Shown here one piece after another: positions 732-62,046 of a stretch of 64,000 nt of DNA. The DNA is from a virus, in IMG/VR virus record IMGVR_UViG_3300025133_000033, one strand, 5' to 3'. Within the stretch, counting starts at the first letter, position 1, and the number at the start of each line of letters is the position of its first letter. The notes beneath the pieces were generated by a model. The model saw only the letters and a program-made list of their open reading frames with translations. It ran no database searches and was not told where the DNA came from. The translations under genes were made by a program, and so were the position numbers.

Positions 732-1129
732 TTCTTTTTCTTTCTCTTCTTTATAGCCTGTTTCTTAGTAATAGGAGAAGGCATACTGCCGTCCTCGGTC
801 ATTCGGGTCATACCAGTAGGCAATTCTTCCATCCCTCCGCTGCGATTTTCCCTTTTATCAAACTTATTAAAGTCCTGGCTCATTTCTTCGCATTTATCTT
901 TGCCGTATTTTTTAGTTTGTTTGTCCGCATATTCACCAAGTGTCGCACACTCGTGGAGACCCTTGATATAATTAGTGACCATAGTATCCGAAGAGTAATC
1001 CCTATAGACCTTACTACTAGAACACTCAGGGCACTCAGCATCATTAAGCTTCTTTTCATAGTCGTTAAAGCTCCATAATTCGCTCCAGGGTTGATCGCAA
1101 TCCTCGCATCTTAAACTATACTCAGGCAT
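728..1129 (-). CDS. FmdB-family zinc-ribbon protein
   Basis: MPEYSLRCEDC...CPECSS pattern; start reassigned to MPEY. Confidence 0.75.
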   Translation of the reverse strand: MPEYSLRCEDCDQPWSELWSFNDYEKKLNDAECPECSSSKVYRDYSSDTMVTNYIKGLHECATLGEYADKQTKKYGKDKCEEMSQDFNKFDKRENRSGGMEELPTGMTRMTEDGSMPSPITKKQAIKKRKKKK

Positions 1130-1772
1130 TTTTTGCTCCTTTAGCAAGGATATCTGCCGCACGAGCCATTACATCCCATCGAGCATCCTTGCAATACATT
1201 AGCTGGAAATCAATAGCAGAGCTAACAGGCTTCTCTTCTTTTGGTTCTGTCCAAGACTTGGTATTCCCAACCATTGTTATTTCTTCTGTAAAGTCATCAT
1301 CAACAGGAAAGATTAGATGCCTACGGTAAGGGCCTCTGCGACCTAATTCATGAATCTCTTCCCTGTCTAAGTCTTTACATACACCAATTGAGCTTCCATG
1401 CATATGAGCTATTTCCGAAGAGTTACTTAATATTTCTTTTCGTGTTTCTTCGTCTATTTGATCGACACTCCAGTTTTTAATGTCCTCCATAGCCTCTGGA
1501 GATATATATAAATCGGAAAGATTACCTTTATCCCAGTAGTAAGAAGGATTTGCTTTCTGCTTTTTCATGACCTCTTTCATTCTTTTAGTGAAACCTTCTC
1601 CATAATCGAATTCCACTAGATTTTCGTCTACCCCTAATGATGCAGGCTCGACCCCCTTTGTGTGGTCTACTAGGTCTTTAGCTTGTCCCGAACGGGAAAG
1701 AGGGCTCGCTCCAACAGCAGCCGCCAAGCCTATAGCACACGTTCTAAAGAAGCTTCTTCTGTTTATATTCAT
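1122..1772 (-). CDS. Tat-signal protein containing capsid-like and tail-tube-like segments
   Basis: NRRSFF, hydrophobic stretch and GQA cleavage site; DLYISPEAMEDIKNW, REEIHELGRRGPY and DARWDVMARA resemble recalled structural-protein motifs. Confidence 0.65.
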   Translation of the reverse strand: MNINRRSFFRTCAIGLAAAVGASPLSRSGQAKDLVDHTKGVEPASLGVDENLVEFDYGEGFTKRMKEVMKKQKANPSYYWDKGNLSDLYISPEAMEDIKNWSVDQIDEETRKEILSNSSEIAHMHGSSIGVCKDLDREEIHELGRRGPYRRHLIFPVDDDFTEEITMVGNTKSWTEPKEEKPVSSAIDFQLMYCKDARWDVMARAADILAKGAKNA

Positions 1773-1974: not shown

Positions 1975-2559
1975 TTAGATAGTAGCCTTTGCTAGTTCTT
2001 TAGGAGGGATAGGAGACCATTGTAAACAGCATAATTTTAGATCAGAGATGGTGCATCTCCTATAGGTATTCCCTCCTTCACTGTTTATTCCACCGTCTTT
2101 TATTATCATAATCAGCTCATACTTCTCACCATAAGGAGTGGCAGGATGGTCTTCCAGAAGATCATATATAGGCTTTCCGTCACGTCGAAGAATATGATAA
2201 GGTTCATCTCGATTATGGAAGGACTTTTGAGCAGGAGACTCGTCCCATCTCATATTTTGATCTCCTAGTGCCTGTAATGTCATGATCGTGACAATACCCT
2301 TGTACTCTATCTCTATCTCAACATCAATTGTACGAAAACGGTCAGGGTTTTCATATAAAGCTATTTGACCAAGCTCAAAGACTTGCTCTAGATCATAAGA
2401 GATAGTAATATTCACGCTTTTAATATTATCTGATGAGATATATTTGGGACCACGACCCTTGACTAGAGGCTCTGCTTTAGCAGCCTTCTCGCCTAAAAAA
2501 GGCAACGCCCCCAGAAAAGGAAGCGTTGCCATAGACTTAAGTAGATTTCTTCTCTTCAT
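1975..2559 (-). CDS. Tat-signal protein with tail-tube-like segment
   Basis: KRRNLLK, h-region and AKA site; SVNITISYDLEQVFELGQIALYEN motif. Confidence 0.65.
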   Translation of the reverse strand: MKRRNLLKSMATLPFLGALPFLGEKAAKAEPLVKGRGPKYISSDNIKSVNITISYDLEQVFELGQIALYENPDRFRTIDVEIEIEYKGIVTIMTLQALGDQNMRWDESPAQKSFHNRDEPYHILRRDGKPIYDLLEDHPATPYGEKYELIMIIKDGGINSEGGNTYRRCTISDLKLCCLQWSPIPPKELAKATI

Positions 2560-4541: not shown

Positions 4542-5359
4542 CGTCTAAATAGACCTCCGAAAATACCCCTACGTCTATATCTTCTATTAGACGAGGGTGG
4601 TGAAACTTTAGGTGGAGATGCCTTCTTACAAGAGACACACTCTTTCTTCTTTGGAACCTCTACAGGAGGAGCCTCAGTACCACACTTAGGGTTATGGGTG
4701 CATTTCTTACCAGATTCTATGCATGGGCATGGAGTACGGTGCCCATCTCCATGAATAATATATCCCAGCCCCTCGCACGGACAGTCTTCGTCTTCGTCTT
4801 CGTCTGGAGGGTCGGGCTCTACATTAGCATATTCCTTAATCGCTGACAATGCCTTCGCTTTATACGACTCGTATTCTTTATCTTGTTCAGACTTATATAG
4901 TTTCCATGACAAGCCATAGAAGAGTCGAGCTAATCTTCTTTTTTTATCTCCAGTTATAGGGTCCGTATCAGTCTGTGGCCCTAAAACTTTAGTCATAGCT
5001 TTCGCAACGGATGGAGAGAACTTTGGATATTTAGGAGACCCGTTGTCCATAAGCTCCGAACCAAATGTTTTCTTGCCAATAAAATCCATAAGGTATTGGA
5101 CTTGGAGATTCGTGTTAAGCGTAACCTTATCGAGCTTCTCTGATAAAGCATTGAACAGTCCTGCCAGCTTACTAGAGCCAGCATCATCTGAAACACTAAT
5201 ACCGTCAACAAGTGCAACGATATCTGCTTCTGGCTTCTCCAGCTTTGCATCACCTAGAGGTAATATTCCTCCAGACTTATACAAAAACGCTATAGCGATA
5301 AGCAAAATTCCTAGCAGCCCCCTAAAATTTAACCTACTCTCTTTTTCCATTATACCCAA
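4538..5359 (-). CDS. Membrane-anchored protein with Cys-rich C-terminus
   Basis: N-terminal TM; CPCEGLGYIIHGDGHRTPCPC. Confidence 0.7.
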   Translation of the reverse strand: MGIMEKESRLNFRGLLGILLIAIAFLYKSGGILPLGDAKLEKPEADIVALVDGISVSDDAGSSKLAGLFNALSEKLDKVTLNTNLQVQYLMDFIGKKTFGSELMDNGSPKYPKFSPSVAKAMTKVLGPQTDTDPITGDKKRRLARLFYGLSWKLYKSEQDKEYESYKAKALSAIKEYANVEPDPPDEDEDEDCPCEGLGYIIHGDGHRTPCPCIESGKKCTHNPKCGTEAPPVEVPKKKECVSCKKASPPKVSPPSSNRRYRRRGIFGGLFRR

Positions 5360-6276
5360 CCTCCTAAGCCATAATTTGGTAACTGACGTGCAGGAAATCC
5401 TTTTACATCGCTGAACGCAAAGGAACCGCGAGCATTCAAAATGGATCGAGCATCACGCTCACGCACCCAAAAGCTTCCATCAGGTTGACCGTGACGCTTG
5501 GGACCACCATTCCATTTTCCCCAGCTATTCTGAATTAAAAACAACATCTCATCAAAAAGTTCGCGAGTATCATCACAGGCTATCCAGGCCATCGCATGAT
5601 TCCAAGAGCCAGAGCGTCTTGCAATGCCCTGAGCATCACGAGTAGACGAAAAGCCCAGACTACTACAGCATGACAAGGCGTATCCATTACCTAATGCGTC
5701 TCTAGCCTCTTCAACAGTTGACACTAAAGAGATAGTATTAACAGGATGCTTACGTGCCTCTGTTCTATATACTGAATCTGGTATCCGATGCTTAGCACCA
5801 CTAGATGAATCATAAACAGACAAGTCGAAATCAGGATATGCTTTACGAAGCAATACTCCTCCTGTTTGATTTACATATCGTGCCGCACCAGAACAAGACA
5901 TTCCTTGTCCTCTGTGGTCTCTTGACTGGTAAATCCCCTCAGTAGCACCTCGTGCTTCCCAAGATTCAGCCTCTCCTTTAATATCTATTTCTACAGCCCG
6001 AGTAATATCAACGGCACCTCTAGTAGCATGGCTTACACAGTCGCCCGTAGTTTGACGCTCCGAAGGACCATACCCAGGATCAAATTTTATTAAAGATTTA
6101 AACGGCAGACTGAGCTTTCCAGCCCCGCTCTCAGATAGTTCCCACGCTGCCGCACCAAACATAGGCATAGGCAGCTCTCCCAAAAGAGCCTTTAGGTCTT
6201 CTGGATCACACTCTGCTCCCGCAAAGCCCTGTGTATAGGCTTCAACGAGTTCTTCTGGAGAATTATAGTCATCCAT
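5350..6276 (-). CDS. Papain-like (C1) cysteine peptidase
   Basis: Q..GDCVSH catalytic Cys, WNHAM His, QNSWG Asn. Confidence 0.85.
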   Translation of the reverse strand: MDDYNSPEELVEAYTQGFAGAECDPEDLKALLGELPMPMFGAAAWELSESGAGKLSLPFKSLIKFDPGYGPSERQTTGDCVSHATRGAVDITRAVEIDIKGEAESWEARGATEGIYQSRDHRGQGMSCSGAARYVNQTGGVLLRKAYPDFDLSVYDSSSGAKHRIPDSVYRTEARKHPVNTISLVSTVEEARDALGNGYALSCCSSLGFSSTRDAQGIARRSGSWNHAMAWIACDDTRELFDEMLFLIQNSWGKWNGGPKRHGQPDGSFWVRERDARSILNARGSFAFSDVKGFPARQLPNYGLGGWV

Positions 6277-12819: not shown

Positions 12820-13773
12820 TCATACTGCGACTTTGCCAAAGTCTATTTTTGGATGGGGGTCGTAATTATTTAAACTATAATCCTCATGCGTCCAATTAAA
12901 GATATCAAAGCCACCATATGGGATCGTGATAGTCGGTAATCGTCTGGGGTCACGCTCAAGCTGCTGGACTGCACCTTTCATTTTGTCTTCATAGATATGA
13001 CAATCCTCTAAAATACCTACCAACTCTCCCGGTATTAAGCCACTTTCTTTACAAATCAACTCTAAAAGCAGTGCATAGCTGGCAATATTAAACGGTACTC
13101 CTAGCATAAGATCGCAGGATCTTTGCTTCCAACATAAATTTAATACACCATTGATATGAACTAAAGTAAAGGCGTAATGGCAGGGAGGAAGTGCCATCAA
13201 GTGTATTTGGTTAGGATTCCAGGCAGATATGACCATCCTGCGGTCGTCTGGATTAGTTTTTAATGTATTAATTACATTTTTTAGTTGGTCACACCCCTTC
13301 TCTATTCCGTTTACCGGCCAATCTAGAGAAGCTCTATCCCCAAAGTCTTCTGGTCCTGCGTCCCATTGTACAGGATAATGCTCATCAAAATTACGCCATT
13401 GATAGCCATATATAGGACCGAGATCATTGGCTATCTCCTGTACCATCTCTGTTGAGTAGTCTTCCTTAGTAGGATGAGCCTCCTTTAACTCTGCCTTCAT
13501 ACTCTCTACCGACTTAGGGTTTGCCCACTCGTTCCATATCTTACATCTCCGCTCCTGATACCATCCCTTACTTGTTATACCGTTGAGAAAGCCTTCTAGT
13601 TCGACAGCAATCCCATGCATATATGTTTTTTTGGTTGTTAAAAGTGGAAAACCGTCAGCCATATTATGTCTGAATACTTCACAAAAAGTGGTCTTTGCTC
13701 GCACTCCGGTACGATTCCCTTTCAAGTGTCCGTTCTCCATAACGTTCCGCACTATGTCAAGATACTGCTTCAT
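12820..13773 (-). CDS. thyA: Thymidylate synthase
   Basis: LGPIYGYQWR, MALPPCH, QRSCDLMLGVPFNIASY, DCHIY. Confidence 0.97.
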   Translation of the reverse strand: MKQYLDIVRNVMENGHLKGNRTGVRAKTTFCEVFRHNMADGFPLLTTKKTYMHGIAVELEGFLNGITSKGWYQERRCKIWNEWANPKSVESMKAELKEAHPTKEDYSTEMVQEIANDLGPIYGYQWRNFDEHYPVQWDAGPEDFGDRASLDWPVNGIEKGCDQLKNVINTLKTNPDDRRMVISAWNPNQIHLMALPPCHYAFTLVHINGVLNLCWKQRSCDLMLGVPFNIASYALLLELICKESGLIPGELVGILEDCHIYEDKMKGAVQQLERDPRRLPTITIPYGGFDIFNWTHEDYSLNNYDPHPKIDFGKVAV

Positions 13774-14243
13774 TCTTTTATGTTCCTAAAATCAAAAACT
13801 TGTGAGGGGTCAACTGCCAGCTTCTTTTTACCTTTCTCTGTACCACGAAGCTCCATTAGTCGTATCGCTACCTTCTCCATAAATTGCAATCTATGAATAT
13901 CTTCCTGTGCCCATACACTGAGAGCCTGATATACAAACTCTGCTATCTCTCCAGTCTCTATTCGAAGACAAGTACGAGCCAGTAGATCAGCAGATGTTTC
14001 GGAAGCATCCTCTACCGCTGCTGAGACATATAGCTGCCCATCCTTACAGCTATACTCAATACCTATCTTGCCATCGCACTCCTCGTCTTCTCCCATACGA
14101 GCATTATGACAATCAGTACATCGTGCTGAGGTTCCAGCCCAGTAGACAGGGTCGCAGGACTTACCACAGTCGGCACAATCTACGGAGGCAGGGGGCTTGG
14201 CATTATAATCAAAGATTAGTGATACTAACTTTCGCAAAACCAT
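13770..14243 (-). CDS. Hypothetical zinc-binding protein
   Basis: CADC...CTDC. Confidence 0.6.
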   Translation of the reverse strand: MVLRKLVSLIFDYNAKPPASVDCADCGKSCDPVYWAGTSARCTDCHNARMGEDEECDGKIGIEYSCKDGQLYVSAAVEDASETSADLLARTCLRIETGEIAEFVYQALSVWAQEDIHRLQFMEKVAIRLMELRGTEKGKKKLAVDPSQVFDFRNIKE

Positions 14244-15060
14244 CTTGATCCTTTCCGCTTAAAAATGTCCCAATCTTACGTGCCACCCCTAATCGAAACT
14301 CTTGAGGTACTGAGCTATCGCTATAGTCGGTTGTTATATAAGAGCCATTAGCATAGGCGTTGGCTCCTGGGGTAGGTTCTCCCAAAGGTCTCGTAATGAT
14401 TGTGCCTTTTCGCAACACCTGAACCTTACCGCCCTTCATAACATCTGAGGCAAGAGGGTAGTGAGAATTGGTTAAATCAATGTTTACTACATCGTTTAGA
14501 AGAATACCTGCAACAGGCTCGTCTCCTTGTTGTAGTCTAACGCATTCTACTGGGCACTCAGGATGACTTATCCCATCGTAGGTTACTACAGAGCCTTTCT
14601 CTGCCACCTGATCCATAAAAAAGGATGAGTCCACCTCTCGAATATCTCTCTGTGCCCTTAAGCCTTTCGCCGTACCAGTGTCCCATAGATCAAGAGTTCC
14701 CGAAAGAGGAGAAACTCCATAGTTGTGGGTCGTCATAGGAGAGGGGCTGTCAGGACTATGTATCTCATGGATACAATCATCAAGGCTTTCATAATACTCA
14801 ATTTTAAAATCTTCGCCAAGAGGAAGAAGATTTCCCGACCCACCGTTTATGACCTTATTCTCTAGCCACTTTGGCCACTCTGTTCTAACTCCGTTAACGG
14901 AAGTTGTTTCGTCTGGAAACGTAGTCTTAGTATAGGTGACTGCGGCATCCTTTTCAATCGTCGCCTGCTCTATCGCTTCTACTTTTTTTACTAAAGGTGC
15001 TGCTGCTAGAGCACCAATGCCAAGTCCTAATTTTTTAAAAAAATCTCTGCGTCCTGTCAT
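14209..15060 (-). CDS. Tat-signal protein fused to a head-decoration-like domain
   Basis: GRRDFFKK, h-region and VEA site; C-terminal half has SFFMDQVAEKG, GILLNDVVNIDLT, KGGKVQVLRKG, GTFLSGKDQDGFAKV. Confidence 0.7.
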   Translation of the reverse strand: MTGRRDFFKKLGLGIGALAAAPLVKKVEAIEQATIEKDAAVTYTKTTFPDETTSVNGVRTEWPKWLENKVINGGSGNLLPLGEDFKIEYYESLDDCIHEIHSPDSPSPMTTHNYGVSPLSGTLDLWDTGTAKGLRAQRDIREVDSSFFMDQVAEKGSVVTYDGISHPECPVECVRLQQGDEPVAGILLNDVVNIDLTNSHYPLASDVMKGGKVQVLRKGTIITRPLGEPTPGANAYANGSYITTDYSDSSVPQEFRLGVARKIGTFLSGKDQDGFAKVSITNL

Positions 15061-16142
15061 TTCATAATCCCCATTTTATTTACTGTTGAATTGAATAGAT
15101 CTATATCTACATCTGCATATGTTAGTGGTCTACGCTGACTAACATCAGACGATAATGCCGCAGCAATAAACCCTGCGGCTGTAGCCTTTTGCATAGCACT
15201 ATACCCATCTGTTTCAAAGTCAGCATGGATAGCGTGAGAGACGCGATACTCGAAACGATCTGAGTATCCCCATACATCTAAAATAACAATATCTTTTTCT
15301 CTATGAGGGGCAAACAATTCTGATAATCCCTTTGGAGAGAATCCTTTGGTATGAATAAAGTAGTGGACAAGATCTCTATGTCCTTGGTATCTTAGTGTCT
15401 TGTATGAGCAATGCTTAACCCCTCTGTCTTTCATTAACTGGAGAGTATGCGATGCTCCACCGCTAGTAAAAAAGGCTTCAAGCGGGGTATGACACCCCTG
15501 CCAATTGAGAACCCCCTGAGTTTTTACATCCTCTAGCCCCAACATTCCCGGCACTGTAGTAATCTTTCCGCCCTCTAGCACTTCACAGTCGTCTGCATAC
15601 TCGTTGTACAATCCATCAGCAGACCATGTTTTTGCATACCCGAACGGATCTTCGTGCTTTGGTAGCTGCTGTGCTGAAAGACCTCCGCAACGCATTCTTA
15701 TTTCTTCTACTGCACCTGTACGAGACAGCTCTCTATAGGCTTCCTCTGCCATTATATTTACCCATCCCGGTGCAAGCCCTAGATCAGTGAATACTGTAGC
15801 ATTTTTATATCTCTCGTTGATTTTGCGGCTGATAGGTACTGACCCACCAAGATCAAAATACGGAACGTCTGCCGCTACCGCTAGGCTTGCAACCTTGGGA
15901 TTATAGAAGTAGGGCAGGGCCGAGAATACAAGGTCAAAATCTTTTCCATATATAGGACTTGTCTCATGACTATATGATTGATTAACATCAATACTATGAT
16001 ATTCATCACACTGTAAACCTCTAGGGCATTCCTCTTCTCTATCAAACGCTACTATAGAAATAGGTTCTGAGAAGTAGACCGTTTTCAGTAGGTGGATGAT
16101 GGCCTTTCCCATTCCACCTGTTCCGAATATAGCTATCTTCAT
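15057..16142 (-). CDS. Saccharopine dehydrogenase / lysine 6-dehydrogenase family protein
   Basis: GTGGMG Rossmann motif, SALPY, YFDLGG, GLAPG, WSADGLYNEY, KTLRY. Confidence 0.85.
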   Translation of the reverse strand: MKIAIFGTGGMGKAIIHLLKTVYFSEPISIVAFDREEECPRGLQCDEYHSIDVNQSYSHETSPIYGKDFDLVFSALPYFYNPKVASLAVAADVPYFDLGGSVPISRKINERYKNATVFTDLGLAPGWVNIMAEEAYRELSRTGAVEEIRMRCGGLSAQQLPKHEDPFGYAKTWSADGLYNEYADDCEVLEGGKITTVPGMLGLEDVKTQGVLNWQGCHTPLEAFFTSGGASHTLQLMKDRGVKHCSYKTLRYQGHRDLVHYFIHTKGFSPKGLSELFAPHREKDIVILDVWGYSDRFEYRVSHAIHADFETDGYSAMQKATAAGFIAAALSSDVSQRRPLTYADVDIDLFNSTVNKMGIMK

Positions 16143-16172
16143 AACTCGCGTGCCTCCAAATGAGCCTGACTA

Positions 16173-17342
16173 CTAGATTGTTTGATCATAATGTGTTCGT
16201 GCTACGCGAACGAAATCTGCACACTTGCTCATATCTTTAATTGATGTTGAACCAATATACGAACAGCAGCTACGTATACCTCCTACTATATCTCTTAATA
16301 CGTGTTCTGCTGATCCCTTATAATCAATATATTTTACTCGACCTTCGCTGGTCTTATAGTTTTTCATTTCACCACAGTGTTTGTCTTGTGCGTGCTCTGA
16401 TGACATTCCATAGAATTCAAGCTGTGCTTTTACTAGACTTTCCGAGCTTATGATACTCTCCCTCTCTAGTTCTTCTAGAAGAGAAAGGTCTTTTAGGGTG
16501 TTTTTGGGGAAGGTAGGATCACGATATAACCATTTACCCTCACACTCGTCTGTACCAGCCAACATGCCCCCAAGCATCACAAAATCTGCGTTCGCCGCGA
16601 AAGCCTTACAAACATCTCCAGGCGTGCGACAACCACCGTCAGCACAGATCAGTCCTAGCCGTTTCTCGTAGCTCTTGAGGCCGTGGGCAGCATGAGAACA
16701 CTCTGCTATGGCCGAGAGCTGAGGATAGCCCACTCCTGTCTTGAGGCGTGTCGTACAGGCTGAGCCAGGACCGATGCCAACCTTGACAATATCCACTCCT
16801 CCATGCAAGATTAGCTCTTGAACCATCTCAGGAGTACAGACGTTGCCAGCCATAATAATAGGGTACTCATCATTGGTGGCATAGTGTTCTCTAATCTTAG
16901 AGCAATGCTTAACAAAATCGTCTGTGTATCCATTAGCTACATCAATACATATATTAGGAACGCCTTCTATCTCAGTGACTAGTGCGTCCAGTCTATCAAA
17001 ATCATGGTCTTTGATGCCTATACTAACCCAGGCGTGAGCCATTAGCCAGCTCTTTTCTGCTTCGTGAACATCGTTAAAGAACTCTGCTAATTCGGGATAG
17101 GTATAATGCTTATGAAGACACGTAATCATGTCATGAGCCCATAAACGATCAGCCATATCTATAGTTCCTGTAGTATCCATGTTAGCAGCCATGATAGGCG
17201 TGCCACTCCAGGTTCTATTCGAGTGATAAAACTGAAAGTCTCTCTCGACAGATACGCTCTTGCGAGATGCTGCCCTAGTACGCTTAGGGACCAAGAGAAC
17301 ATCATCAAAGTCAAGCTTCAGATCATTCTTTATTAGCGACAT
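16173..17342 (-). CDS. guaC: GMP reductase
   Basis: [44 protein letters not shown]. Confidence 0.95.
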
Positions 17343-17556
17343 TACTAGCAAATCCTATCTTGTGTTTTTCAGAACGGGCGTGATCACGAACTTCATACTC
17401 AGCCAACCATTTATCATGTCTAGCATCACCATTCCACCAAACGACATTGTATATAACCCCCGATTCACGAATAGTTATAGCATGAACATGCCCCTTGATG
17501 CTCTTTCCATCAGATTGCCATATCTCTACTTCGGTTCCGATTTTGTATAGAGTCAT
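17323..17556 (-). CDS. Small hypothetical protein
   Basis: 77 aa coupled ORF. Confidence 0.6.
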   Translation of the reverse strand: MTLYKIGTEVEIWQSDGKSIKGHVHAITIRESGVIYNVVWWNGDARHDKWLAEYEVRDHARSEKHKIGFASNVANKE

Positions 17557-18005
17557 TTTCCACTGCTCCCAAACCCAGAGCCTCCACGTTCAGAGGTTGT
17601 TAGTTCTGATACTGCGTGCATTTTAAACTGATAAGTCTCATGGAATAGTATTTGTGCTATTCTATCTCCCTTCTTAATCCTCACTTGAACATTCTCATCT
17701 TGAGGGGTTTCAAAAAGAGGAAGAGGTATAGTAGAGTTGAACAGGCACACCATGATCTCTCCACGGTAGCCCTGATCTATTACTCCTGCCAGTACATCTA
17801 TTCCTTTTTTAACAGCAAGTCCTGATCGAGGCCAGATAAGACCGGCATAGCCCTCTGGTATCTCAATAGAAATTCCTGTCTTAACCGTCTTCCTTTCCCC
17901 TCCATTTATTGTAACGTCTTCGATGGCATACAGATCCCAGCCTGCATCAGATTTATTGGCTTTTGTTGGAACCTTTGCGTCTTCATGTAGAAGTTTGACT
18001 TTCAT
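17553..18005 (-). CDS. dut: Trimeric dUTPase
   Basis: AGWDL, PRSGLA, GVIDQGYRGEI, RIAQ, RGGSGFGSSG. Confidence 0.97.
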   Translation of the reverse strand: MKVKLLHEDAKVPTKANKSDAGWDLYAIEDVTINGGERKTVKTGISIEIPEGYAGLIWPRSGLAVKKGIDVLAGVIDQGYRGEIMVCLFNSTIPLPLFETPQDENVQVRIKKGDRIAQILFHETYQFKMHAVSELTTSERGGSGFGSSGK

Positions 18006-19093
18006 GCAGTAGTTATCTCCAATAATGAGGCGGCTGTTTTTTCCCAAGAGAGTTCTTTTGCTGTTTCGATACCTGCCTCGTTAGGCATCTCACGATCACT
18101 CTGCCATCGCTTATATACTTCTCGTAGACGGTTGATTAACTCATCATAAGCGTCACCTTCTAGTGATGCCCATGTACCATTATCTCCCGTGAACCAGTAC
18201 CCATCAAACATAGGTTCTTCTTCTGTTATTTTAACTAGGTTGCAATTGTCCTTATTGCAGAACTCAGTATGTGCTGAGTAGTCCGTAGCAATAACTTGCT
18301 TGCCCATACTCATAAGCTCTAATATCTCAAGGTTCCAGCCCTCAGCACGAGCAGGGAAGACCCCGCAGTTAATTCTAGCCATAATTCTTGCTAGTTCGTC
18401 CTGGTATTGAACCTTCTCTATCAGCTTGATTCGATAGTCTCCCTTATAAGAAGACTCCCATTGACTCTTCTGATTCTCATTGAGGAATGGATTGTCTGCC
18501 ATCATCCATAATTCTACGTCATGAACGTTCGGAAACGCATCTTTGAAAGCTTTATGTAGAATATCATGGCCCTTACGAACCTCCCACTTGCCGCAATTAA
18601 AAAAGATACACTTATGGGGATCAGTGTTATTAAACGTCTCGTTAAAGATGGTGCGGTCCACGCCCATAGGTACGATATGAGGCTTCTCGTCAGCAGGTTT
18701 GATCTTTAGCTGGTCAATAACAATGGCAGCGGCCCAGAGAGAGGGGACTGCTATTCGATCTGCCGACTTAAGATGAGACTTGCGGCGAGCATCAAACTTA
18801 TTTACTTCAAAGAAAGAAAGATTTGTTAAAGGACCAACCCCAATACGTTCCCCTAGATGGTTCTCATGCCAAATCTTCAAGCATGGAGCAGTAGGATCAA
18901 ACTCATTTTGCTTCATGATATCAATCTGAAACTGATGAGTCTGCTCCTCGTTCATTTTAATAGGAGTGCTTATCTGATTACTGACAGGCCAGAGAGTCAC
19001 ATCATCAGTCTTGTTTAGCTCCTTCCATACATTATAACTTACTACTCCATATCCCAGAGAATTGATGGGGCAAAACAGATTTACTTTCTTCAT
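18002..19093 (-). CDS. Glycosyltransferase (GT4, GT-B fold)
   Basis: GKWEVRKG, EGWNLEILELMSMGK. Confidence 0.88.
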   Translation of the reverse strand: MKKVNLFCPINSLGYGVVSYNVWKELNKTDDVTLWPVSNQISTPIKMNEEQTHQFQIDIMKQNEFDPTAPCLKIWHENHLGERIGVGPLTNLSFFEVNKFDARRKSHLKSADRIAVPSLWAAAIVIDQLKIKPADEKPHIVPMGVDRTIFNETFNNTDPHKCIFFNCGKWEVRKGHDILHKAFKDAFPNVHDVELWMMADNPFLNENQKSQWESSYKGDYRIKLIEKVQYQDELARIMARINCGVFPARAEGWNLEILELMSMGKQVIATDYSAHTEFCNKDNCNLVKITEEEPMFDGYWFTGDNGTWASLEGDAYDELINRLREVYKRWQSDREMPNEAGIETAKELSWEKTAASLLEITTA

Positions 19094-20286: not shown

Positions 20287-20591
20287 TGGTGGAGCCGGGG
20301 GGGATTCGAACCCCCCGTCCCTAATTGTTTTCAATAAAGCGTCTACGTGTTTGTGTCGAGCTAAGCCCTGCACGACCAAGGGGCAGGATAGTTTAATGAC
20401 CTCTTACAGTCCAGCTTCAAAACAGGTATCTAGCTTTGGTTAACAGGGTGCTAGATAACCCCTACTGCTTACGCAGCTAAAGCAAAGTTTTCGTTTGCAA
20501 TTAAATGTTAGTCAATTTTTTAGGTAGCCCTTTGACCAACTACCACACGCAACTTTACATCCGTCCAATAGGTCGAAACCAAGTCGGCCCC
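20287..20591 (-). ncRNA. ssrA: tmRNA with tag (A)ANENFALAA
   Basis: 5' GGGGCCGACTTGGTTTCGAC; 3' GTTCGAATCCCCCCCGGCTCCACCA; tag ORF at 20469-20498. Confidence 0.96.
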
Positions 20592-20597
20592 AAACAG

Positions 20598-20669
20598 AGA
20601 GCGAAGAGGGATTCGAACCCCCGTAGATCTGAGTTGCAGTCAGACGCCTTGCCTCTCGGCCACTCGCTC
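20598..20669 (-). tRNA. tRNA-Cys(GCA)
   Basis: Cloverleaf; anticodon loop CTGCAAC. Confidence 0.9.
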
Positions 20670-20675
20670 TAAAAG

Positions 20676-20747
20676 TGCAGCTACGGAGAATCGAACTCCG
20701 ATCTCAACGTTGGCAACGTTATATACTAGCCTTTGTACGATAGCTGC
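20676..20747 (-). tRNA. tRNA-Gly(GCC)
   Basis: Anticodon loop TTGCCAA. Confidence 0.9.
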
Positions 20748-21107
20748 CTATTCTTCCTCAATTGCTTCTCTAACAATTCCTACCCACATATCATCAAGTT
20801 CGTGATCGGTAAAGTCGCCAGGAAACATCTTGCGAATCTGATTCCTAACAGCCATACCCTCTCGAAAATGAACAGGGTGAGGGACTGCCCCGTTAAAGAT
20901 TACAGGATCAACTCTGCCATACTCTCTATAGTAGTCACGGAAAAGTTCGATACCTTCAGGCTTTAACCAGCCCCTAACTCTCTCAACAATATCTTGTCGT
21001 TGAGTTTTCCTGTTGTTTTTAATGACTATGATCCTTGACTTGCTTGCTCCAATGACAAACCTCTCGTCTTTGATACCAGTGTACCATTTTATGACCGTGT
21101 TCATCAT
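20748..21107 (-). CDS. Hypothetical protein
   Basis: 119 aa ORF. Confidence 0.55.
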   Translation of the reverse strand: MMNTVIKWYTGIKDERFVIGASKSRIIVIKNNRKTQRQDIVERVRGWLKPEGIELFRDYYREYGRVDPVIFNGAVPHPVHFREGMAVRNQIRKMFPGDFTDHELDDMWVGIVREAIEEE

Positions 21108-21214
21108 GCTCTACGATCACCAACCAAAACGGAAGGGAAAGTAGGCGTCTGCGTGCATTCTTATGTTCGAATGTCTTACCGCACTTAAGTGCAACATTAA
21201 TAGTATTCATAATA

Positions 21215-21544
21215 CTACCTCCGATAGTACCGTGTTTTTCCAGCTCTAAAATCGAACGTACTATATCCCCGGTACTGAGAAAAATTAACATTAACGCCAA
21301 ATCTTACATACCTCTGTGGCGAGATGTAAGTTGGCCCGATACTCATGTATGTCCCGGTTGGATACCAAGTAACAACTGGGCGATAGGCGATCACAGGCCC
21401 ATGCCTGTGTAGCCCTGCGTGGGGATGTGCGTGCCAGTGTCCGTTGTGATGGTGCTGACCAAAGGCATCGCTTGCAAAGAAGCCAAGGGAAAAGAACATC
21501 AATTGGACAAAGAAAAAGAACAAGATTAAAAGTAGCTTCTTCAT
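21215..21544 (-). CDS. Secreted His-rich small protein
   Basis: MKKLLLILFFFF signal; HHHNGHWHAHPH; start reassigned because the longer ORF overlaps a tRNA. Confidence 0.65.
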   Translation of the reverse strand: MKKLLLILFFFFVQLMFFSLGFFASDAFGQHHHNGHWHAHPHAGLHRHGPVIAYRPVVTWYPTGTYMSIGPTYISPQRYVRFGVNVNFSQYRGYSTFDFRAGKTRYYRR

Positions 21545-21562
21545 TACATCACCTTTATAGAG

Positions 21563-21633
21563 TGCAAGATATCGGAATCGAACCGATGACCTTTGAGTGG
21601 AAGTCAAATGTTTTACCACTAAACTAATCTTGC
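21563..21633 (-). tRNA. tRNA-Gly(TCC)
   Basis: Anticodon loop CTTCCAC. Confidence 0.85.
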
Positions 21634-21705
21634 CAATGTTCCTTTGCGTGACAGTTGGCACATAGAACTACACATTTTTCAATTTCTTTGAAGATTTTGG
21701 AAACG
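21633..21705 (-). pseudogene. HNH endonuclease C-terminal relic
   Basis: Reads SKIFKEIEKCVVLCANCHAKEHW with no upstream gene body. Confidence 0.7.
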
Positions 21706-21788
21706 CCCCCAACGTCTTGAGGTAGGCCCGTCAGCCTATGATCTGCGTGGGAATCGAACCCACCTATGTCCGTTTATCAACGTTTCAG

Positions 21789-21861
21789 TGAGAGCGGTGG
21801 GAATCGAACCCACATTATCTTGGTTAAGAGCCAAGTGCATTACCTTATCTGCCACACTCCC
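21789..21861 (-). tRNA. tRNA-Lys(CTT)
   Basis: Anticodon loop CTCTTAA. Confidence 0.9.
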
Positions 21862-22144
21862 GTTAAAGCCCGCCTCGGCTGGTGGTACTAACGGACCCTC
21901 ATAAAGTCCTCCCACATTCTTATTTAAACGTCGGCTACAACGTACCGAATTTCGCATCCTTCTAGAACAGATGCCGAGCCTTATCATCACTCTTAGTCAT
22001 CCTGACTTAACGAAAACTTTTCAGCGTCCGAATAAGCCATACAACCGCTCACAGCGTCCATAGACGCCCCCGCTACCACAGCACTTCTTCAAGTTCACCA
22101 AAAGTTAAGGTATTCATCAAATTCTCCTTATCACGTTAGTGAAG

Positions 22145-22217
22145 TAGGCAATAAGGGAGTCGAACCCCTTCTTCTAGTTCCGTAGACTAGCGTGCTATTC
22201 CGTCACACTCATCGCCC
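22145..22217 (-). tRNA. tRNA-Arg(ACG)
   Basis: Anticodon loop CTACGGA. Confidence 0.85.
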
Positions 22218-22222
22218 AAATA

Positions 22223-22540
22223 TTATTCTCTAATCTCTATGTTTTCTAGTCCAGACTCAAATATCTCATCTAGCTTTTGCATCAAGAAAAAGCCAGCCAT
22301 ATAAGACTTCATACTTTCTTTATCTTGACTTAGAATTAAGAGGACAGGCCCCTCGGCATTATCAATAGATCCTGAATCTGCGAAGATAGTAAAGACCTTG
22401 CCCGACTGATTAAATTTCTCAATAAATTCCAGCGGAACCTCGTTCGTATAAACGTCATCGTCCATACTGTATTCATCGGAACCTACCTCTTTCCAAATGC
22501 GAAAGCGGTATAGTTGAGTAGTTTCTAGTGTATCTGTCAT
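22223..22540 (-). CDS. Hypothetical protein
   Basis: 105 aa ORF. Confidence 0.6.
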   Translation of the reverse strand: MTDTLETTQLYRFRIWKEVGSDEYSMDDDVYTNEVPLEFIEKFNQSGKVFTIFADSGSIDNAEGPVLLILSQDKESMKSYMAGFFLMQKLDEIFESGLENIEIRE

Positions 22541-22546
22541 AATAAA

Positions 22547-22735
22547 TTATCCTGTTGCTGAAATTGCTTGTCTTTTTCCAGATAGATACTGAGTGTATTC
22601 TATACTCCCTAGCTCGTAAGGAGGTTCTTCTTCGTTAGGAATATTAGGCTCGTCGTCTCGTCTCCCATATAAGTATACCACGTAACCACGGTCAAAAGGC
22701 TCTAAAGCTTCAAAATATTCCTGTGAGATAGTCAT
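22547..22735 (-). CDS. Hypothetical protein
   Basis: 62 aa coupled ORF. Confidence 0.5.
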   Translation of the reverse strand: MTISQEYFEALEPFDRGYVVYLYGRRDDEPNIPNEEEPPYELGSIEYTQYLSGKRQAISATG

Positions 22736-23067
22736 CTTTTCAAGCCCATTTGAGAACGTTCTAAGTCCTCCAATGCAATTTCACACAGGTTTTTAATGTC
22801 ATCTAAGTCTCCATTATCAACTATGCATTTATCCTCATACGGGTCCAAGAGCCTACGTCTGATCTCAGTTTCGGCAGAAGAGATATGACCTAACGCATTA
22901 CTTAGTTCGGTATATCCACGAGGGTCTAAAATCCCCAACGTCAATCGACAGATGATATAGTTCAGAGCACCTCCTCTTTTTTCCTTTGGGACGTGAAGAG
23001 AATCTTCTATTAATACATCAATACTATCGTCTATTAAGTTTCTATGTTCCTGTGGGATGTAAGGCAT
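22732..23067 (-). CDS. Conserved phage hypothetical protein
   Basis: MPYI..GALNYII..EIRRR..PYEDKC..NGD pattern, recognised as a common phage family. Confidence 0.75.
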   Translation of the reverse strand: MPYIPQEHRNLIDDSIDVLIEDSLHVPKEKRGGALNYIICRLTLGILDPRGYTELSNALGHISSAETEIRRRLLDPYEDKCIVDNGDLDDIKNLCEIALEDLERSQMGLKR

Positions 23068-23098
23068 GTCCTGTCCTTTCGAGTTCCAAGTAAGTAAG

Positions 23099-23184
23099 CG
23101 GAGGGTGAGGGAATCGAACCCGCCAACCCGTCTTAGGGGCTACTGCTTAGCAAGCAGCTTCCGTAGCCAATTTGGTTACCCTCC
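23099..23184 (-). tRNA. tRNA-Ser(GCT)
   Basis: Loop TTGCTAA; long variable arm; G73. Confidence 0.9.
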
Positions 23185-23189
23185 ATTAG

Positions 23190-23263
23190 TAGTACGGGAG
23201 GGAGTCGAACCCTCAAACACTAGTTCCTAAAACTAGTCGCTCTGCCAGTTGGCGTACCGTACC
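23190..23263 (-). tRNA. tRNA-Leu(TAG), short variable loop
   Basis: Loop TTTAGGA. Confidence 0.85.
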
Positions 23264-23268
23264 ATGAG

Positions 23269-23342
23269 TGGTGTGGGAGGGGGTCGAACCCTCAACTACT
23301 AAGGTTTGAGCTTAGCTCCTCTACCTGTTGGGATACCACACC
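23269..23342 (-). tRNA. tRNA-Leu(CAA), short variable loop
   Basis: Loop CTCAAAC. Confidence 0.85.
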
Positions 23343-23441
23343 TAACGAATACCTAGTCCCCTAAGTATTAAGTCTATCCAACAAATTAAAATATCACAAG
23401 TCCAGATTGCCAATCCTCGCCAATCAGGGTATCTCATTTAG

Positions 23442-23516
23442 TGATGCCGGTGGGGGTCGAACCCACAAACTACAAGATTTTAAGTCTTGTTCCTCTACCA
23501 GTTGGGATACGGCACC
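23442..23516 (-). tRNA. tRNA-Leu(TAA), short variable loop
   Basis: Loop CTTAAAA. Confidence 0.85.
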
Positions 23517-23530
23517 GTGTTATTAGCTAT

Positions 23531-23685
23531 ACCAGTGTGCTACTACGCCAAAGACCATGCTGCATGTTCGCATGACGCCCCCGCACATGCTTTCCGCGAG
23601 AGTTGGTTGTTACCATACGCCCCCTTCTTTCTACGGAAGGGAATCACTCTTTAAATGATGGCTGCTTCTAAGCCCACATCCTAGT
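23531..23685 (-). ncRNA. 23S rRNA GTPase-associated-centre (H43-H44, uL11-binding) mimic with internal insertion
   Basis: ACTAGGATGTGGGCTTAGAAGCAGCCATCATTTAAAGAGTG-[~96 nt]-GCGTAGTAGCACACTGGT, compared with 23S 1051-1108. Confidence 0.85.
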
Positions 23686-23704
23686 AGTCTTCGCTAATAA
23701 ATTG

Positions 23705-23784
23705 TCCCCTGCCCAGAACGTACACGGTCGCGACCCGTCCTAGAGGTTCACCAAGGTCACGGTCGAATTGAACGGCCTTCGGGG
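23705..23784 (-). ncRNA. Candidate small RNA with a 5'-proximal T-arm
   Basis: CCCC/GGGG termini; GGCCG-TTCAATT-CGACC T-loop hairpin. Confidence 0.4.
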
Positions 23785-23787
23785 TAG

Positions 23788-23860
23788 TGGGCAATGAGGG
23801 ATTCGAACCCCCGACCATTTGGATGTAAGCCAAACACTCTAGCCGCTGAGTTAATCGCCC
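23788..23860 (-). tRNA. tRNA-Val(TAC)
   Basis: Loop CTTACAT. Confidence 0.9.
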
Positions 23861-23862
23861 GC

Positions 23863-23925
23863 TTTATGTTCTTTTCTATGACAATTAGCACATAGAACTT
23901 CACACTTTTTTATCTCTTCTAGTAT
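23863..23925 (-). pseudogene. HNH endonuclease C-terminal relic
   Basis: Reads ILEEIKKCEVLCANCHRKEHK. Confidence 0.7.
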
Positions 23926-23926
23926 T

Positions 23927-24325
23927 CTACTTCTTCTTTATTTCCCTAAGTTTTCTTAGTCCTTTTCTATATTCTTTTGGTAAGAGTAGCCTCTCTTGTA
24001 TTTCAGGATCTTCCTGGGTCCAAGACTCGCGTACTATCTTACATTTTATTCTTCTAAGTAATTTCCCATCCATCCATATACACTCGTAAAGTCCCGTCTG
24101 ATAATTGTACGTTGGAATTTGGGATCTATCTTTCAAAAGTCTCCAGGCTTTAACTTGATAACGGTTGGAATAACAGGACCAGTCATAGAAGATAGCTTGG
24201 TCAAAGACCAGTCTAGCCTCATCATCATAAAAGTGATTGACCTCTATTAGATCTACTGTCTCTTCAAGGGCAACTTCTTCGTTGGGTTGTAATGCAAAAC
24301 AAAACAATAGGAGCAGTGCCGCCAT
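23927..24325 (-). CDS. Secreted hypothetical protein (Planctomycete-like)
   Basis: Signal-like N-terminus; ETVDLIEVNHFYDD..LVFDQ. Confidence 0.7.
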   Translation of the reverse strand: MAALLLLFCFALQPNEEVALEETVDLIEVNHFYDDEARLVFDQAIFYDWSCYSNRYQVKAWRLLKDRSQIPTYNYQTGLYECIWMDGKLLRRIKCKIVRESWTQEDPEIQERLLLPKEYRKGLRKLREIKKK

Positions 24326-24342
24326 TGAGCCAGCCTCCTTAA

Positions 24343-24711
24343 TTAATGTAGAAGATCAATCCTACCTTTCTCTAGCACTTCTTTCAAAGGAGCTGTCTTG
24401 CCGTTAGTATGGTTCGTGACAATTCCCTTTTTGAAATCGTATGTGCGAATCCTTGGAGTGTTTTTAATCTTATCGTCGCGTCTCGCCTTCTTCTCTGCTG
24501 CCTGCTGCTCGTCTTGTTGTTCTTTTATTTTTTCCTCGATACGCTTAAGAGCTATGCGATGATTCTGCTTGCGGGTACGCTGTTCGTCTATCTCCACCTT
24601 TAGTCCTGTGGGGATATGAACAATCCTACATCCTGTCTCTACCTTATTCTTATTCTGACCACCAGGGCCTTTCCCTTTGTAGTAAGAAATCTTTAGGTCT
24701 TTCTTATTCAT
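24343..24711 (-). CDS. RF-1 domain (GGQ) peptidyl-tRNA hydrolase, ArfB/PrfH-like
   Basis: GPGGQNKNKVETGCRIVHIPTG, RIRTY; no stop-codon recognition domain. Confidence 0.9.
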   Translation of the reverse strand: MNKKDLKISYYKGKGPGGQNKNKVETGCRIVHIPTGLKVEIDEQRTRKQNHRIALKRIEEKIKEQQDEQQAAEKKARRDDKIKNTPRIRTYDFKKGIVTNHTNGKTAPLKEVLEKGRIDLLH

Positions 24712-24735
24712 CTCTTCTTCCTTTTGTTAAGTAAG

Positions 24736-24808
24736 TCGTACTCCTGTGAGTCGAACACAGTACGTCTTCCTTATCAGGGAAAACCGCATAACCGATGCAG
24801 CGAGTACG
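24736..24808 (-). tRNA. tRNA-Ile(GAT), atypical D arm
   Basis: CGTACTC/GAGTACG acceptor stem; loop CTGATAA; T arm CTGTG-TTCGACT-CACAG. Confidence 0.75.
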
Positions 24809-24810
24809 GT

Positions 24811-24977
24811 GTGCAGGCTCACGAGTTCCTGCGTGCCCCTTGAACTGAACCTTGGCTGGCCAATTTAACTCTGTAAAGAGGACCAAGGTAGGGTAATGTT
24901 CCGACCTACATTCAAAGGCCGTATTGGTTGCGGACGACTACCCCCATGAAGAGTAGCCACTGATCAGGTTATCCGCA
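24811..24977 (-). ncRNA. Candidate structured RNA
   Basis: Multiple nested stems between two tRNAs; no credible ORF. Confidence 0.45.
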
Positions 24978-24978
24978 G

Positions 24979-25050
24979 TGGACAGTACGGGACTCGAACC
25001 CGTAAAACCAGCTTGCAAGGCTAGGATGATCCCAATTTCATCAACCGCCC
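24979..25050 (-). tRNA. tRNA-Ala(TGC)
   Basis: Loop CTTGCAA; G3:U70. Confidence 0.9.
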
Positions 25051-25061
25051 ATGATTGACAG

Positions 25062-25134
25062 TGGGGCCGGTGGGAATCGAGCCCACATTGCCTTGATTAA
25101 AAGTCAAGTACATTACCTTATCTGTCACAGCCCC
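25062..25134 (-). tRNA. tRNA-Lys(TTT)
   Basis: Loop CTTTTAA. Confidence 0.9.
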
Positions 25135-25327
25135 GTAATAAATGCCTGAATCCTACCGCTTAGGTCTGGCATTCCATCGTTTGCAGCCTCGTCTCTGAGT
25201 TCGACGAGCAAGTCCTTTAGTTCAGATAGCTCGTTGCGTCCTAGCTGAGCTAGATGACAATTCTGCGGATCATCACCATTAAAACCACCTCTTATAATTG
25301 CTTCAAGTACCCAGATAGCATGTTCCA

Positions 25328-25726
25328 TTAATAAACCTCGTGATGACATTCATCGTCTTCTTTATTATACACTTTACAGTAGTATTCTTCGTCGATTATT
25401 TGATGCTCAGACCATGCCCCGTCTTCACAAATCTCATAACCGCACTTGGCACAGTTAATTCTTATGTAGTCGAGCGGATTAGAACCAGAAATATCTGTTG
25501 TCCCCATCAGCCCTACTAGCCATTCTATCTTCTTTTGATCATCAGATAAAACTTCTAGGTCGTCCCAATCAAGCTCGCCACGGATCTCGGGGTGCTTGCC
25601 TAAAGCCTCTCCAAAATAAACTATTTCTCCTACGGCCCGCTCTACATCCTCTTCTTCGGCAACAAACAACCCATGTATATCACCGTGTCTTCCGCAGTCC
25701 CAATGAAACTTGTACAGTTTCTTCAT
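25328..25726 (-). CDS. Conserved phage hypothetical protein
   Basis: YKFHWDCGRHGDIHGLFVA..YFGEALGKH pattern. Confidence 0.7.
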   Translation of the reverse strand: MKKLYKFHWDCGRHGDIHGLFVAEEEDVERAVGEIVYFGEALGKHPEIRGELDWDDLEVLSDDQKKIEWLVGLMGTTDISGSNPLDYIRINCAKCGYEICEDGAWSEHQIIDEEYYCKVYNKEDDECHHEVY

Positions 25727-25760
25727 GCTTAAGATCCTTTCATAATAATGCCCTTTAAAG

Positions 25761-25845
25761 CGGAAGGTGAGGGACTCGAACCCATCAACCCGTCTTAGGG
25801 GCGGCTGTTTTCAAAACAGTCTGCTTTCCAATTCGCATACCTTCC
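25761..25845 (-). tRNA. tRNA-Ser(TGA)
   Basis: Loop TTTGAAA; long variable arm. Confidence 0.9.
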
Positions 25846-26177
25846 ATTTTTAAAGGTAGAACTTAACAACAATCACAACCATCGTAGCAAGGACAGCAAG
25901 GACTACTGAAGAATATATAGCCCAGTTTGCCGTAGCTATCTGATGATCTATCTTAGCCATACGCTCCTTAATCAATCTCTCTTGTTCCAGTATTTCTTTT
26001 TGCCAATCAGTCATTACCGACCCTCTCTATAAGTGTTAGTGCCACTACAACTCTTGCAAAGAAAAAACGTTCTAAACTCTGAAGTAGGTGAAACATCCAT
26101 CATATTAAAGGAACGACAGTCGTTACAGACTGGAAAAAACTTATTCAGTATCCAGTGAATCATATTCTCTCCTTGTA

Positions 26178-26235
26178 TGGTGGACTGATCGGGGAATCGA
26201 ACCCCGCAGCAACTAGTATAGATCCAACCCAGCCC
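26178..26235 (-). ncRNA. 58-nt alanine-identity minihelix (acceptor stem plus T arm, encoded CCA)
   Basis: GGGCTGG...CGGGG-TTCGATT-CCCCG-A-TCAGTCC-ACCA; G3:U70 and A73. Confidence 0.6.
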
Positions 26236-26240
26236 ATAAG

Positions 26241-26315
26241 AGGTTCCGATGGGACTCGAACCCACATATTCTTGATTACAAATCAAGACCGATTGCCATT
26301 TCCGGTCACGGAACC
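26241..26315 (-). tRNA. tRNA-Thr(TGT)
   Basis: Loop TTTGTAA. Confidence 0.85.
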
Positions 26316-61803: not shown

Positions 61804-62046
61804 CTACTTCAAGGCACTCTCCATGTCTCTTTTCACCTTTTCTCCACAAGCCTTAATATCATCCATCTCGGTCTTAAGACCAGCGACCTCTTTCTCCACT
61901 TCCTTCATTCCAGCCTTAAAACTAGGCAGAACTTTACCGGCGTTACGGGCCAGTTTAGGAAGGGCACTTGCTCCGAACAGCAGAACCACAATTCCACCTA
62001 TGATCAAGAGTTCAGTTACTCCAGGCATAGCGAATGCAAACATCAC
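61804..62046 (-). CDS. tatA: Twin-arginine translocase subunit TatA
   Basis: PGVTELLIIGGIVVLLFG..LPKLAR..GK....FK.GM. Confidence 0.9.
   Translation of the reverse strand: MMFAFAMPGVTELLIIGGIVVLLFGASALPKLARNAGKVLPSFKAGMKEVEKEVAGLKTEMDDIKACGEKVKRDMESALK

Follow-up and report, generated by a model that had tools for sequence, protein, structure and literature searches.

The cement proteins of phages Pam3 and E217 form trimers at the three-fold axes of the capsid, where an N-terminal arm makes most of the contacts with the major capsid protein (MCP). To our knowledge, capsid decoration proteins are known solely as parts of the virion that are assembled in the cytoplasm. The twin-arginine translocation (Tat) pathway is the route for folded proteins, and AmiA/AmiC and SufI are examples of its bacterial substrates that carry no cofactor. 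Here we analyzed a 64,000-nucleotide stretch of viral DNA (IMG/VR record IMGVR_UViG_3300025133_000033; the whole of this stretch is called the window), which is part of a large marine phage with all genes on one strand, and in it a gene, P0001, that places a predicted Tat signal peptide and a long linker in front of a capsid-cement domain. We refer to it as the Tat-cement gene. The evidence assembled below makes it probable that this gene is an accessory, anciently diverged paralogue of a capsid cement gene whose product has been re-addressed to outside the cytoplasm, where it would meet co-exported capsid-derived proteins at the envelope. The gene is composed as follows.

14209..15060, minus strand: whole Tat-cement gene P0001, Tat signal plus linker plus cement domain, 283 aa (open reading frame and translation)
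14974..15060, minus strand: twin-arginine signal peptide, residues 1-29 (RRDFFKK, a Gly/Ala-rich hydrophobic region, a KK C-terminal region and VEA)
14662..14973, minus strand: disordered acidic linker, residues 30-133, 104 aa (predicted local distance difference test score, pLDDT, 44-61; 17 D/E versus 7 K/R)
14212..14661, minus strand: beta-tulip capsid-cement domain, residues 134-283, 150 aa, with the N-arm motif LRAQRD (phmmer, PF22758 and fold)

A preliminary description of this DNA, made from the letters alone, had placed the open reading frame (ORF) at exactly these outer coordinates. It had also reported a Tat signal, a linker of about 110 aa (104 aa when measured, and predicted to be disordered) and the C-terminal motifs SFFMDQVAEKG and KGGKVQVLRKG, all of which are present. 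A protein identical to P0001 is encoded on at least 21 metagenome contigs from several samples, the longest of which is 175,725 bp.

Both homology and fold identify the C-terminal domain. An exhaustive phmmer search over 1.8 billion representatives (threshold E<1e-3) returned 188 matches to P0001, the best at 3.5e-17, and these are mostly proteins of 150-170 aa that start MALKxDR. In the IMG/VR loci of the homologues, the gene order is portal, scaffold, cement and major head protein, in agreement with the preliminary description, which took this domain for the small protein encoded beside the major capsid gene in related phages. The profile PF22758 (Phage_cement; E217 gp24 / Pam3 gp6) scores 18.4 bits on P0001 (E=0.0025, residues 156-280), below its 27-bit gathering cut-off; the nearest homologues carry the family, as seen for P0002-P0005, P0112 matches it weakly, and P0014 and P0059 pass at 30 bits. 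P0001 has no match in PHROGs, and the sole match when PDB sequences were searched with a profile was a weak one, to phiCD508 gp48 (E=0.32).

The predicted structure points the same way. The model of residues 131-283 has a pLDDT mostly above 90 (88-97 over most of its length, with dips to 66-77). Each of the top 22 Foldseek matches in the PDB is either a decoration or cement protein of a capsid or the C-terminal fragment of phi29 gp12; Pam3, E217, TW1, phi29 gp8.5, P74-26 and lambda pD are among them. Alignment with VIA-align gave Z 13.2 for HFTV1 (8qsy_LJ; root-mean-square deviation (rmsd) 2.7, 121 residues aligned), 11.9 for T1 and FCWL1, 10.6 for Pam3 (8hdt_G; rmsd 6.9, 147 aligned) and 9.6 for E217 (8frs_f; rmsd 6.4, 149 aligned). 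Lambda-type proteins followed with 8.5 for TW1 (5wk1_K), 7.3 for phi29 gp8.5 (6qyy_A), 5.9 for P74-26 (6bl5) and 4.5 for lambda pD (5mfd_D), and unrelated chains gave Z values of at most 2.6. As modeled, P0001 has a beta-tulip core in common with the lambda gpD-type decoration proteins, a likeness at the level of the fold only. Structural neighbours of the domain in the ESM Atlas are Phage_cement clusters. The decoration-type fold assumed in the preliminary description, for which comparison with beta-tulip proteins had been recommended, is thus recovered. The arm motif LRAQRD lies at residues 134-139 of P0001 with 133 residues ahead of it, in place of the free N-terminal arm of a 150-210 aa protein.

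Residues 1-29 of P0001, MTGRRDFFKKLGLGIGALAAAPLVKKVEA, comprise an RRxFxK motif, a Gly/Ala-rich hydrophobic region (h-region) of 14 residues, a basic C-terminal region (c-region) and a VEA cleavage-like site. Set against the Tat consensus, in which S/T-R-R-x-F-L-K is followed by an h-region and an AxA-type site, the protein has T-G-R-R-D-F-F-K-K, then LGLGIGALAAAPLV, then KKVEA. As a control for chance, a loose Tat pattern was scanned over 2711 ORFs from 1.9 Mb of control phage loci; it occurred in nine of them, every one antisense noise. The same pattern was then sought in 155 proteins of the cement family, namely 150 representatives from the exhaustive search and five near relatives, of which two are near-identical. 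It was found in 20 of the 155, and these 20 are all N-extended. The linker that follows varies among relatives in both length and sequence, with the exception of a GGSGxLDLxW-like motif in the nearest subclade.

The signal is a property of a clade rather than of a single gene. Besides P0001, 19 N-extended cluster representatives (50% identity) begin with RRxFLK-type signals; in the alignment of these 20 sequences RR is invariant and F/L is at least 90% conserved, and many have a basic c-region and an AxA-like site. When the shared domain was used to build a maximum-likelihood tree, all 20 Tat rows came to lie on one side of a branch (Shimodaira-Hasegawa-like approximate likelihood ratio test, SH-aLRT, 93), together with three rows that have a different N-extension and nine short rows. 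The other side consists of 97 canonical rows, none of which has a signal, and none of 500 shuffles clustered the Tat label as strongly. All but three of the full-length N-extended members of the clade start with a Tat signal. The N-arm motif, aLKaDR, is retained in the Tat clade, and its domains contain 3.7 Cys on average versus 1.07 in canonical domains, with at least two Cys in 19 of 20 Tat rows versus 31 of 97 canonical rows; this high Cys content fits an oxidising compartment. The Tat-tagged cement form is an old and widespread clade. Scans of IMG/VR for Tat-bearing cement genes returned canonical genes only. One signal-less member, P0059 (L183:10001-10891, on a Joint Genome Institute contig of 252,763 bp), carries an N-extension of another kind (MK..RLTSVDIKVIEK…), and its C-terminus, …CCSG, is rich in Cys. 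Its gene lies between an HNH gene and recA, in a replication region and likewise outside any head module, and P0014 and P0115 have the same form.

Comparison with relatives indicates that the gene is accessory. With a conserved neighbour (window 5353-6276) as bait, 80 IMG/VR relatives were collected. The two closest, L184 and L185 (82% identical in the bait), lack the Tat-cement gene: the saccharopine-dehydrogenase-like gene that precedes it in the window is followed there by 139 nt and then by a homologue of the 157-aa ORF that lies behind it. The gene is likewise precisely absent from L188, L192 and L195. A complete relative, G001, whose genome of 130,845 bp has terminal repeats and whose bait gene is 79% identical, contains both a canonical cement gene and the remains of a Tat-cement gene.

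59783-60262 of G001: canonical signal-less cement gene, 151 aa, directly upstream of the MCP gene
60272-61270 of G001: MCP gene, 333 aa
L266:1510-2039, minus strand: decayed Tat-cement gene of G001 at the syntenic metabolic site

The decayed copy consists of a 102-aa ORF (Tat signal and linker, ending in a stop) and a separate 62-aa ORF that corresponds to the end of the domain; the N-arm and the first half of the fold are missing. A canonical cement gene is also carried by G002. P0001 is 38% identical to the canonical cement protein of G001 (E=1e-20), which is no closer than it is to other family members, so that the paralogy must be an old one. On three more contigs a Tat-cement gene lies downstream of the saccharopine-dehydrogenase-like gene, adjacent to it in L165 and L181 and with two genes between in the third; in L165 and L181 the Tat-cement domain is 31-36% identical to that of the window, versus 39-74% for the flanking genes. 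Judged from these gene comparisons, the Tat-cement protein is very probably not the virion's own cement protein. The preliminary description had tied its view to the existence of a signal-less paralogue next to a capsid gene and of a decoration-protein fold, and since the paralogue is found in G001 and the fold is that of a beta-tulip, the view stands.

The Tat-cement gene has companions. An MCP profile was made from the capsid genes located behind canonical cement genes, 103 in number; 40 of these MCPs were placed in the reference alignment, and for 16 of them there is a match to phrog_2522 (major head protein). With this profile, we found Tat-tagged proteins related to the capsid protein in and near the window. 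The window also encodes a Tat-tagged protein related to the tail module.

L013:5658-6794, about 1.5 kb ahead of the first position of the window: P0156, Tat signal and full-length MCP homologue, 378 aa (MCP profile E=9e-47)
1122..1772, minus strand: Tat signal and rearranged MCP fragments, 216 aa (MCP profile E=1.7e-26)
1975..2559, minus strand: Tat signal and tail-module-related domain, 194 aa (Tat motif; phmmer)

The N-terminus of P0156 is MKRRDFVKALGVLGISVPLAVDLEA, its match spans the whole MCP profile, and it is 32% identical to the MCP of G001 over 326 residues. Its AlphaFold model is unusable (mean pLDDT 43.9), so its identity as a capsid protein depends on sequence. The 216-aa protein is described as rearranged because MCP positions 154-244 precede positions 109-137; database relatives of this fragment, P0166, P0167 and P0231, also have Tat N-termini. 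The 194-aa protein matches ORFs located 4-6 kb downstream of the MCP gene in canonical loci (phmmer E down to 4e-8), and two of these tail-region ORFs weakly match phrog_290, minor tail protein.

Such copies are not confined to the window. The genes for a Tat-MCP fragment and a Tat-cement protein are adjacent and overlapping in L167 and 1.6 kb apart in L182, and Tat-tagged MCP fragments also occur in G001, G007 and L204/L205; in the last two, four consecutive or nearby Tat genes (150, 186, 170 and 371-379 aa) match the MCP profile at L204:5094-10370 and L205:7071-12323. Altogether, Tat-MCP copies or fragments co-occur with Tat-cement in the window phage as well as in three or more further lineages, and in two lineages the genes are within 2 kb of each other. 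Thus, as far as the sequences go, the Tat-cement gene looks like part of an apparently undescribed set of Tat-targeted capsid-derived proteins. Homologue searches aimed at the window phage's own MCP retrieved only P0156 itself when started from P0156, and 67 matches, none on the 175,725-bp contig, when started from the 216-aa fragment. A complex prediction for P0156 (residues 60-378) with the cement domain (residues 128-283) scored 0.00; run without controls, this score carries no weight either way on binding.

The phage also encodes a component of the export machinery.

61804..62046, minus strand: phage TatA, 80 aa (PF02416 E=4e-14, 52 bits versus a 21-bit cut-off)

An orthologue of this TatA is present in G001. 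G006, a complete genome of 166.8 kb with one cement gene and one capsid gene, has neither TatA nor Tat-tagged copies. In the window, TatA belongs to a small cluster of envelope genes (61804-63068, minus strand). After it come a protein of 183 aa, whose signal (…FTLSSGC) is lipoprotein-like, and a membrane protein of 154 aa.

Since the Tat pathway carries folded proteins, a compact, fast-folding beta domain would be a natural cargo. We propose that the cement domain would fold in the cytoplasm, that the host TatBC would recognise the signal, and that translocation would draw on extra TatA capacity supplied by the phage. The destination of the protein would be the periplasm, where it would be set free by cleavage at VEA or stay on a long tether, and there it may form, with the co-exported capsid-derived proteins, a capsid-surface-like assembly or a mimic of one at the envelope. 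Joint action with the Tat-tagged capsid proteins is suggested because the capsid-binding arm has been kept and because capsid-derived Tat cargo co-occurs in several lineages. The benefit would most likely lie at the level of the envelope, with the exclusion of competing phages and the remodelling of the infected cell's envelope as candidates, and this fits the fast evolution and patchy distribution of the gene. In their patchiness, decay in G001 and fast divergence, the Tat-cement genes resemble competition genes such as those for superinfection exclusion. We also advance, tentatively, a more specific possibility, in which a Tat programme boosted by phage TatA exports a capsid copy, capsid fragments and a cement copy, and a periplasmic capsid-like lattice or shell (a 'pseudo-capsid') could shield the cell or reshape its envelope.

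Several observations weigh against export to the envelope as the explanation of this gene. Tat export of P0001 is a prediction from its sequence, and P0001 scores 15.8 bits against the TIGR01409 TAT_signal_seq model, below the cut-off of 16.7; the companion at L167:9555-10001 passes with 18.0, and P0106 scores 16.0. The signal is lacking in P0014, P0059, P0115 and several short members of the clade, and the P0059-type proteins therefore point to non-virion cytoplasmic roles within it. The decay of the G001 copy means that the gene is dispensable. The correlation between TatA and the Tat-tagged copies covers three genomes, and TatB and TatC would have to come from the host, as would the type of envelope. 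Finally, the presence of a canonical cement gene in the window phage itself is deduced from its relative G001.

Among other explanations, a fairly unlikely one is that the protein is Tat-exported but acts alone, with the beta-tulip serving as a binding module for a host envelope protein or glycan that blocks a receptor or changes the surface. Beta-tulip cement-like modules do recur in fibre and head-fibre proteins (BFVD matches and Atlas clusters), L166 has no Tat-MCP partner within 10 kb, and the gene evolves fast, all as expected of a lone binding module. Glycosyltransferase or sugar genes also lie within a few kb in eight of eight contexts, four of them inside glycan clusters, but such genes are plentiful in large marine phages, so that this nearness may be due to chance. 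Against it stand the conservation of the N-arm motif, which binds the MCP in solved capsids, and the co-occurrence with Tat-MCP genes, seen in four or more lineages and in two of these within 2 kb. That the protein nevertheless decorates the virion, with an N-extension that resembles a Tat signal by chance or is a removable assembly tag, and with a gene that has moved out of the head module, would agree with an intact domain and capsid-binding N-arm and with a canonical cement gene known for the window phage only by way of G001. However, we consider this very unlikely, as the Tat motif is conserved over 20 diverged clusters, close relatives either lack the gene or have a decayed copy, while at least two of them (G001 and G002) keep a canonical cement gene, in the complete G001 beside the MCP gene, and the phage encodes both TatA and a parallel Tat-tagged MCP copy besides the real MCP.

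The signal might instead remain uncleaved and anchor the protein to the inner membrane, from which the cement domain would extend on its long tether, for example for lysis timing or for holding other exported proteins. P0031, P0093 and P0056 have no clear AxA site after a short h-region, and the linkers are long and variable, some of them very Lys-rich, but P0001 and its nearest relatives have good VEA or AxA-type sites, and Gly/Ala-rich h-regions of 12-14 residues, an established property of Tat signals, are short for stable anchoring; we therefore regard an anchor as highly improbable. Least probable of all is a decaying duplicate without present function. Although the G001 copy is broken into ORFs of 102 and 62 aa and the gene has been lost in several relatives, the frame is intact in the window, the identical protein recurs on the 21 or more contigs from several samples, the signal, N-arm and core residues are conserved over 20 clusters with less than 50% identity, and the start of the gene appears coupled to the gene upstream. 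The exported, accessory cement paralogue thus remains the explanation that we favour.

The setting of the Tat-cement gene in the window is metabolic, as shown by its neighbours and by other features of the stretch.

12820-13773: thyA, flanking the Tat-cement gene on one side
13770..14243, minus strand: conserved Cys-rich ORF of 157 aa without a family match, directly downstream and overlapping the 3' end of the Tat-cement gene
15057..16142, minus strand: saccharopine-dehydrogenase-like gene (Pfam PF16653/PF03435), directly upstream of the Tat-cement gene
16173-17351: GMP-reductase-type gene, flanking the Tat-cement gene on the other side
20287-26315 and 55354-61724, minus strand: two islands with a tmRNA (transfer-messenger RNA; tag ANENFALAA) and 24 tRNA genes

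The saccharopine-dehydrogenase-like gene and the 157-aa ORF are what lies, besides the Tat-cement gene, between thyA and the GMP-reductase-type gene. The Tat-cement start codon overlaps the saccharopine-dehydrogenase-like stop codon (ATGA), with a purine-rich stretch 9-13 nt ahead, an arrangement which indicates that its start is translationally coupled to the upstream gene. Homologues of the 157-aa ORF are located behind the Tat-cement slot in L165, L181 and G001, and one is retained in L184. A role for this ORF as a dedicated Tat chaperone was considered and rejected, because it is kept in relatives that have no Tat-cement gene. Elsewhere, the window encodes ribonucleotide reductase, dUTPase, dCMP deaminase and ClpP, among others. 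There is no structural module and no second cement copy within the 64 kb, and instead of the head-module position next to the major capsid gene, the Tat-cement gene occupies a place between the saccharopine-dehydrogenase-like gene and thyA; the location given in the preliminary description, between thyA and guaC and away from any structural module, was correct. The late-promoter box (G/T)GTGTA(A/T) has 27 matches versus 28 expected, none of them ahead of the Tat-cement operon, and scans for sigma-70 promoters and terminators stayed at chance level. No GenBank phage was matched by megablast with positions 13000-17500 or by tblastn with P0001. In relatives, thyX (PF02511) takes the place of thyA at the same position, and an intein (PF14890) is present in the L181 ribonucleotide reductase (L165:10893-11543 and L181:8816-12562).

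A link between Tat-cement genes and glycans is possible, judging from gene neighbourhoods. In a second subclade, the Tat-cement genes lie inside glycosyltransferase or sugar-modification clusters on four of four contigs (L166, L167, L182 and the P0031 contig), and in the subclade of the window a GT1 gene is found 2-4 genes upstream. Two regions of the window, 18002-19093 and 27784-43508, were noted in this respect.

We found no account of this combination in the literature. A review of Tat transport from 2026 names neither a substrate encoded by a phage nor a capsid protein (PMC13673990). Neither Tat nor the periplasm comes up in a preprint of 2026 about the envelope proteins of huge phages, which refers to the capsid only as a phylogenetic marker. 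Full-text searches turned up no Tat substrate that is encoded by a phage and descends from a capsid protein. If the predicted export is true, some large marine phages would put parts of the capsid surface into the host periplasm, where no role of a capsid protein is known. Phages would also become a source of Tat substrates, phage-encoded TatA would gain a rationale, and export cargo that is compact and folds by itself would be open to study, to the extent of several hundred residues.

Four known systems resemble parts of this one. Phages T4 (Imm/Sp) and T5 (Llp) have envelope proteins that exclude superinfecting phages; these have Sec or lipoprotein signals and are not capsid copies. The Tat-cement genes are similar to them in being accessory, fast-evolving and patchily distributed phage genes whose products would be made during infection and work in the envelope, and exclusion, which is known for Imm/Sp and Llp, is here a candidate role suggested by analogy. 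Encapsulins are shells of the HK97 fold found outside virions; they are cytoplasmic and cellular and need no cement protein. Like them, the companion Tat-MCP copy, which is known here from its sequence, would put a capsid-type protein to a use other than packaging a virus genome. As in the cofactor-less Tat substrates AmiA/AmiC and SufI, which are reviewed in PMC13673990, P0001 has a signal of the S/T-RR-x-F-L-K type and no evident cofactor, in keeping with a domain that would fold fast in the cytoplasm and leave it through Tat; unlike them, P0001 is the product of a phage gene and descends from a virion protein. The closest likeness of the domain is to the Phage_cement family (Pam3 gp6 and E217 gp24, with their kin T1, FCWL1 and HFTV1), with which it shares homology, the beta-tulip fold (Z 9.6-13.2) and the capsid-contacting N-arm motif. 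Unlike the canonical members, to which it is 38-40% identical, P0001 has a Tat signal and a 104-aa linker ahead of the arm, is Cys-rich, and is encoded by an accessory gene in a metabolic operon. By sequence and gene context, P0001 adds a new form to the capsid-cement family, one that has a predicted export address and a non-virion genomic setting.

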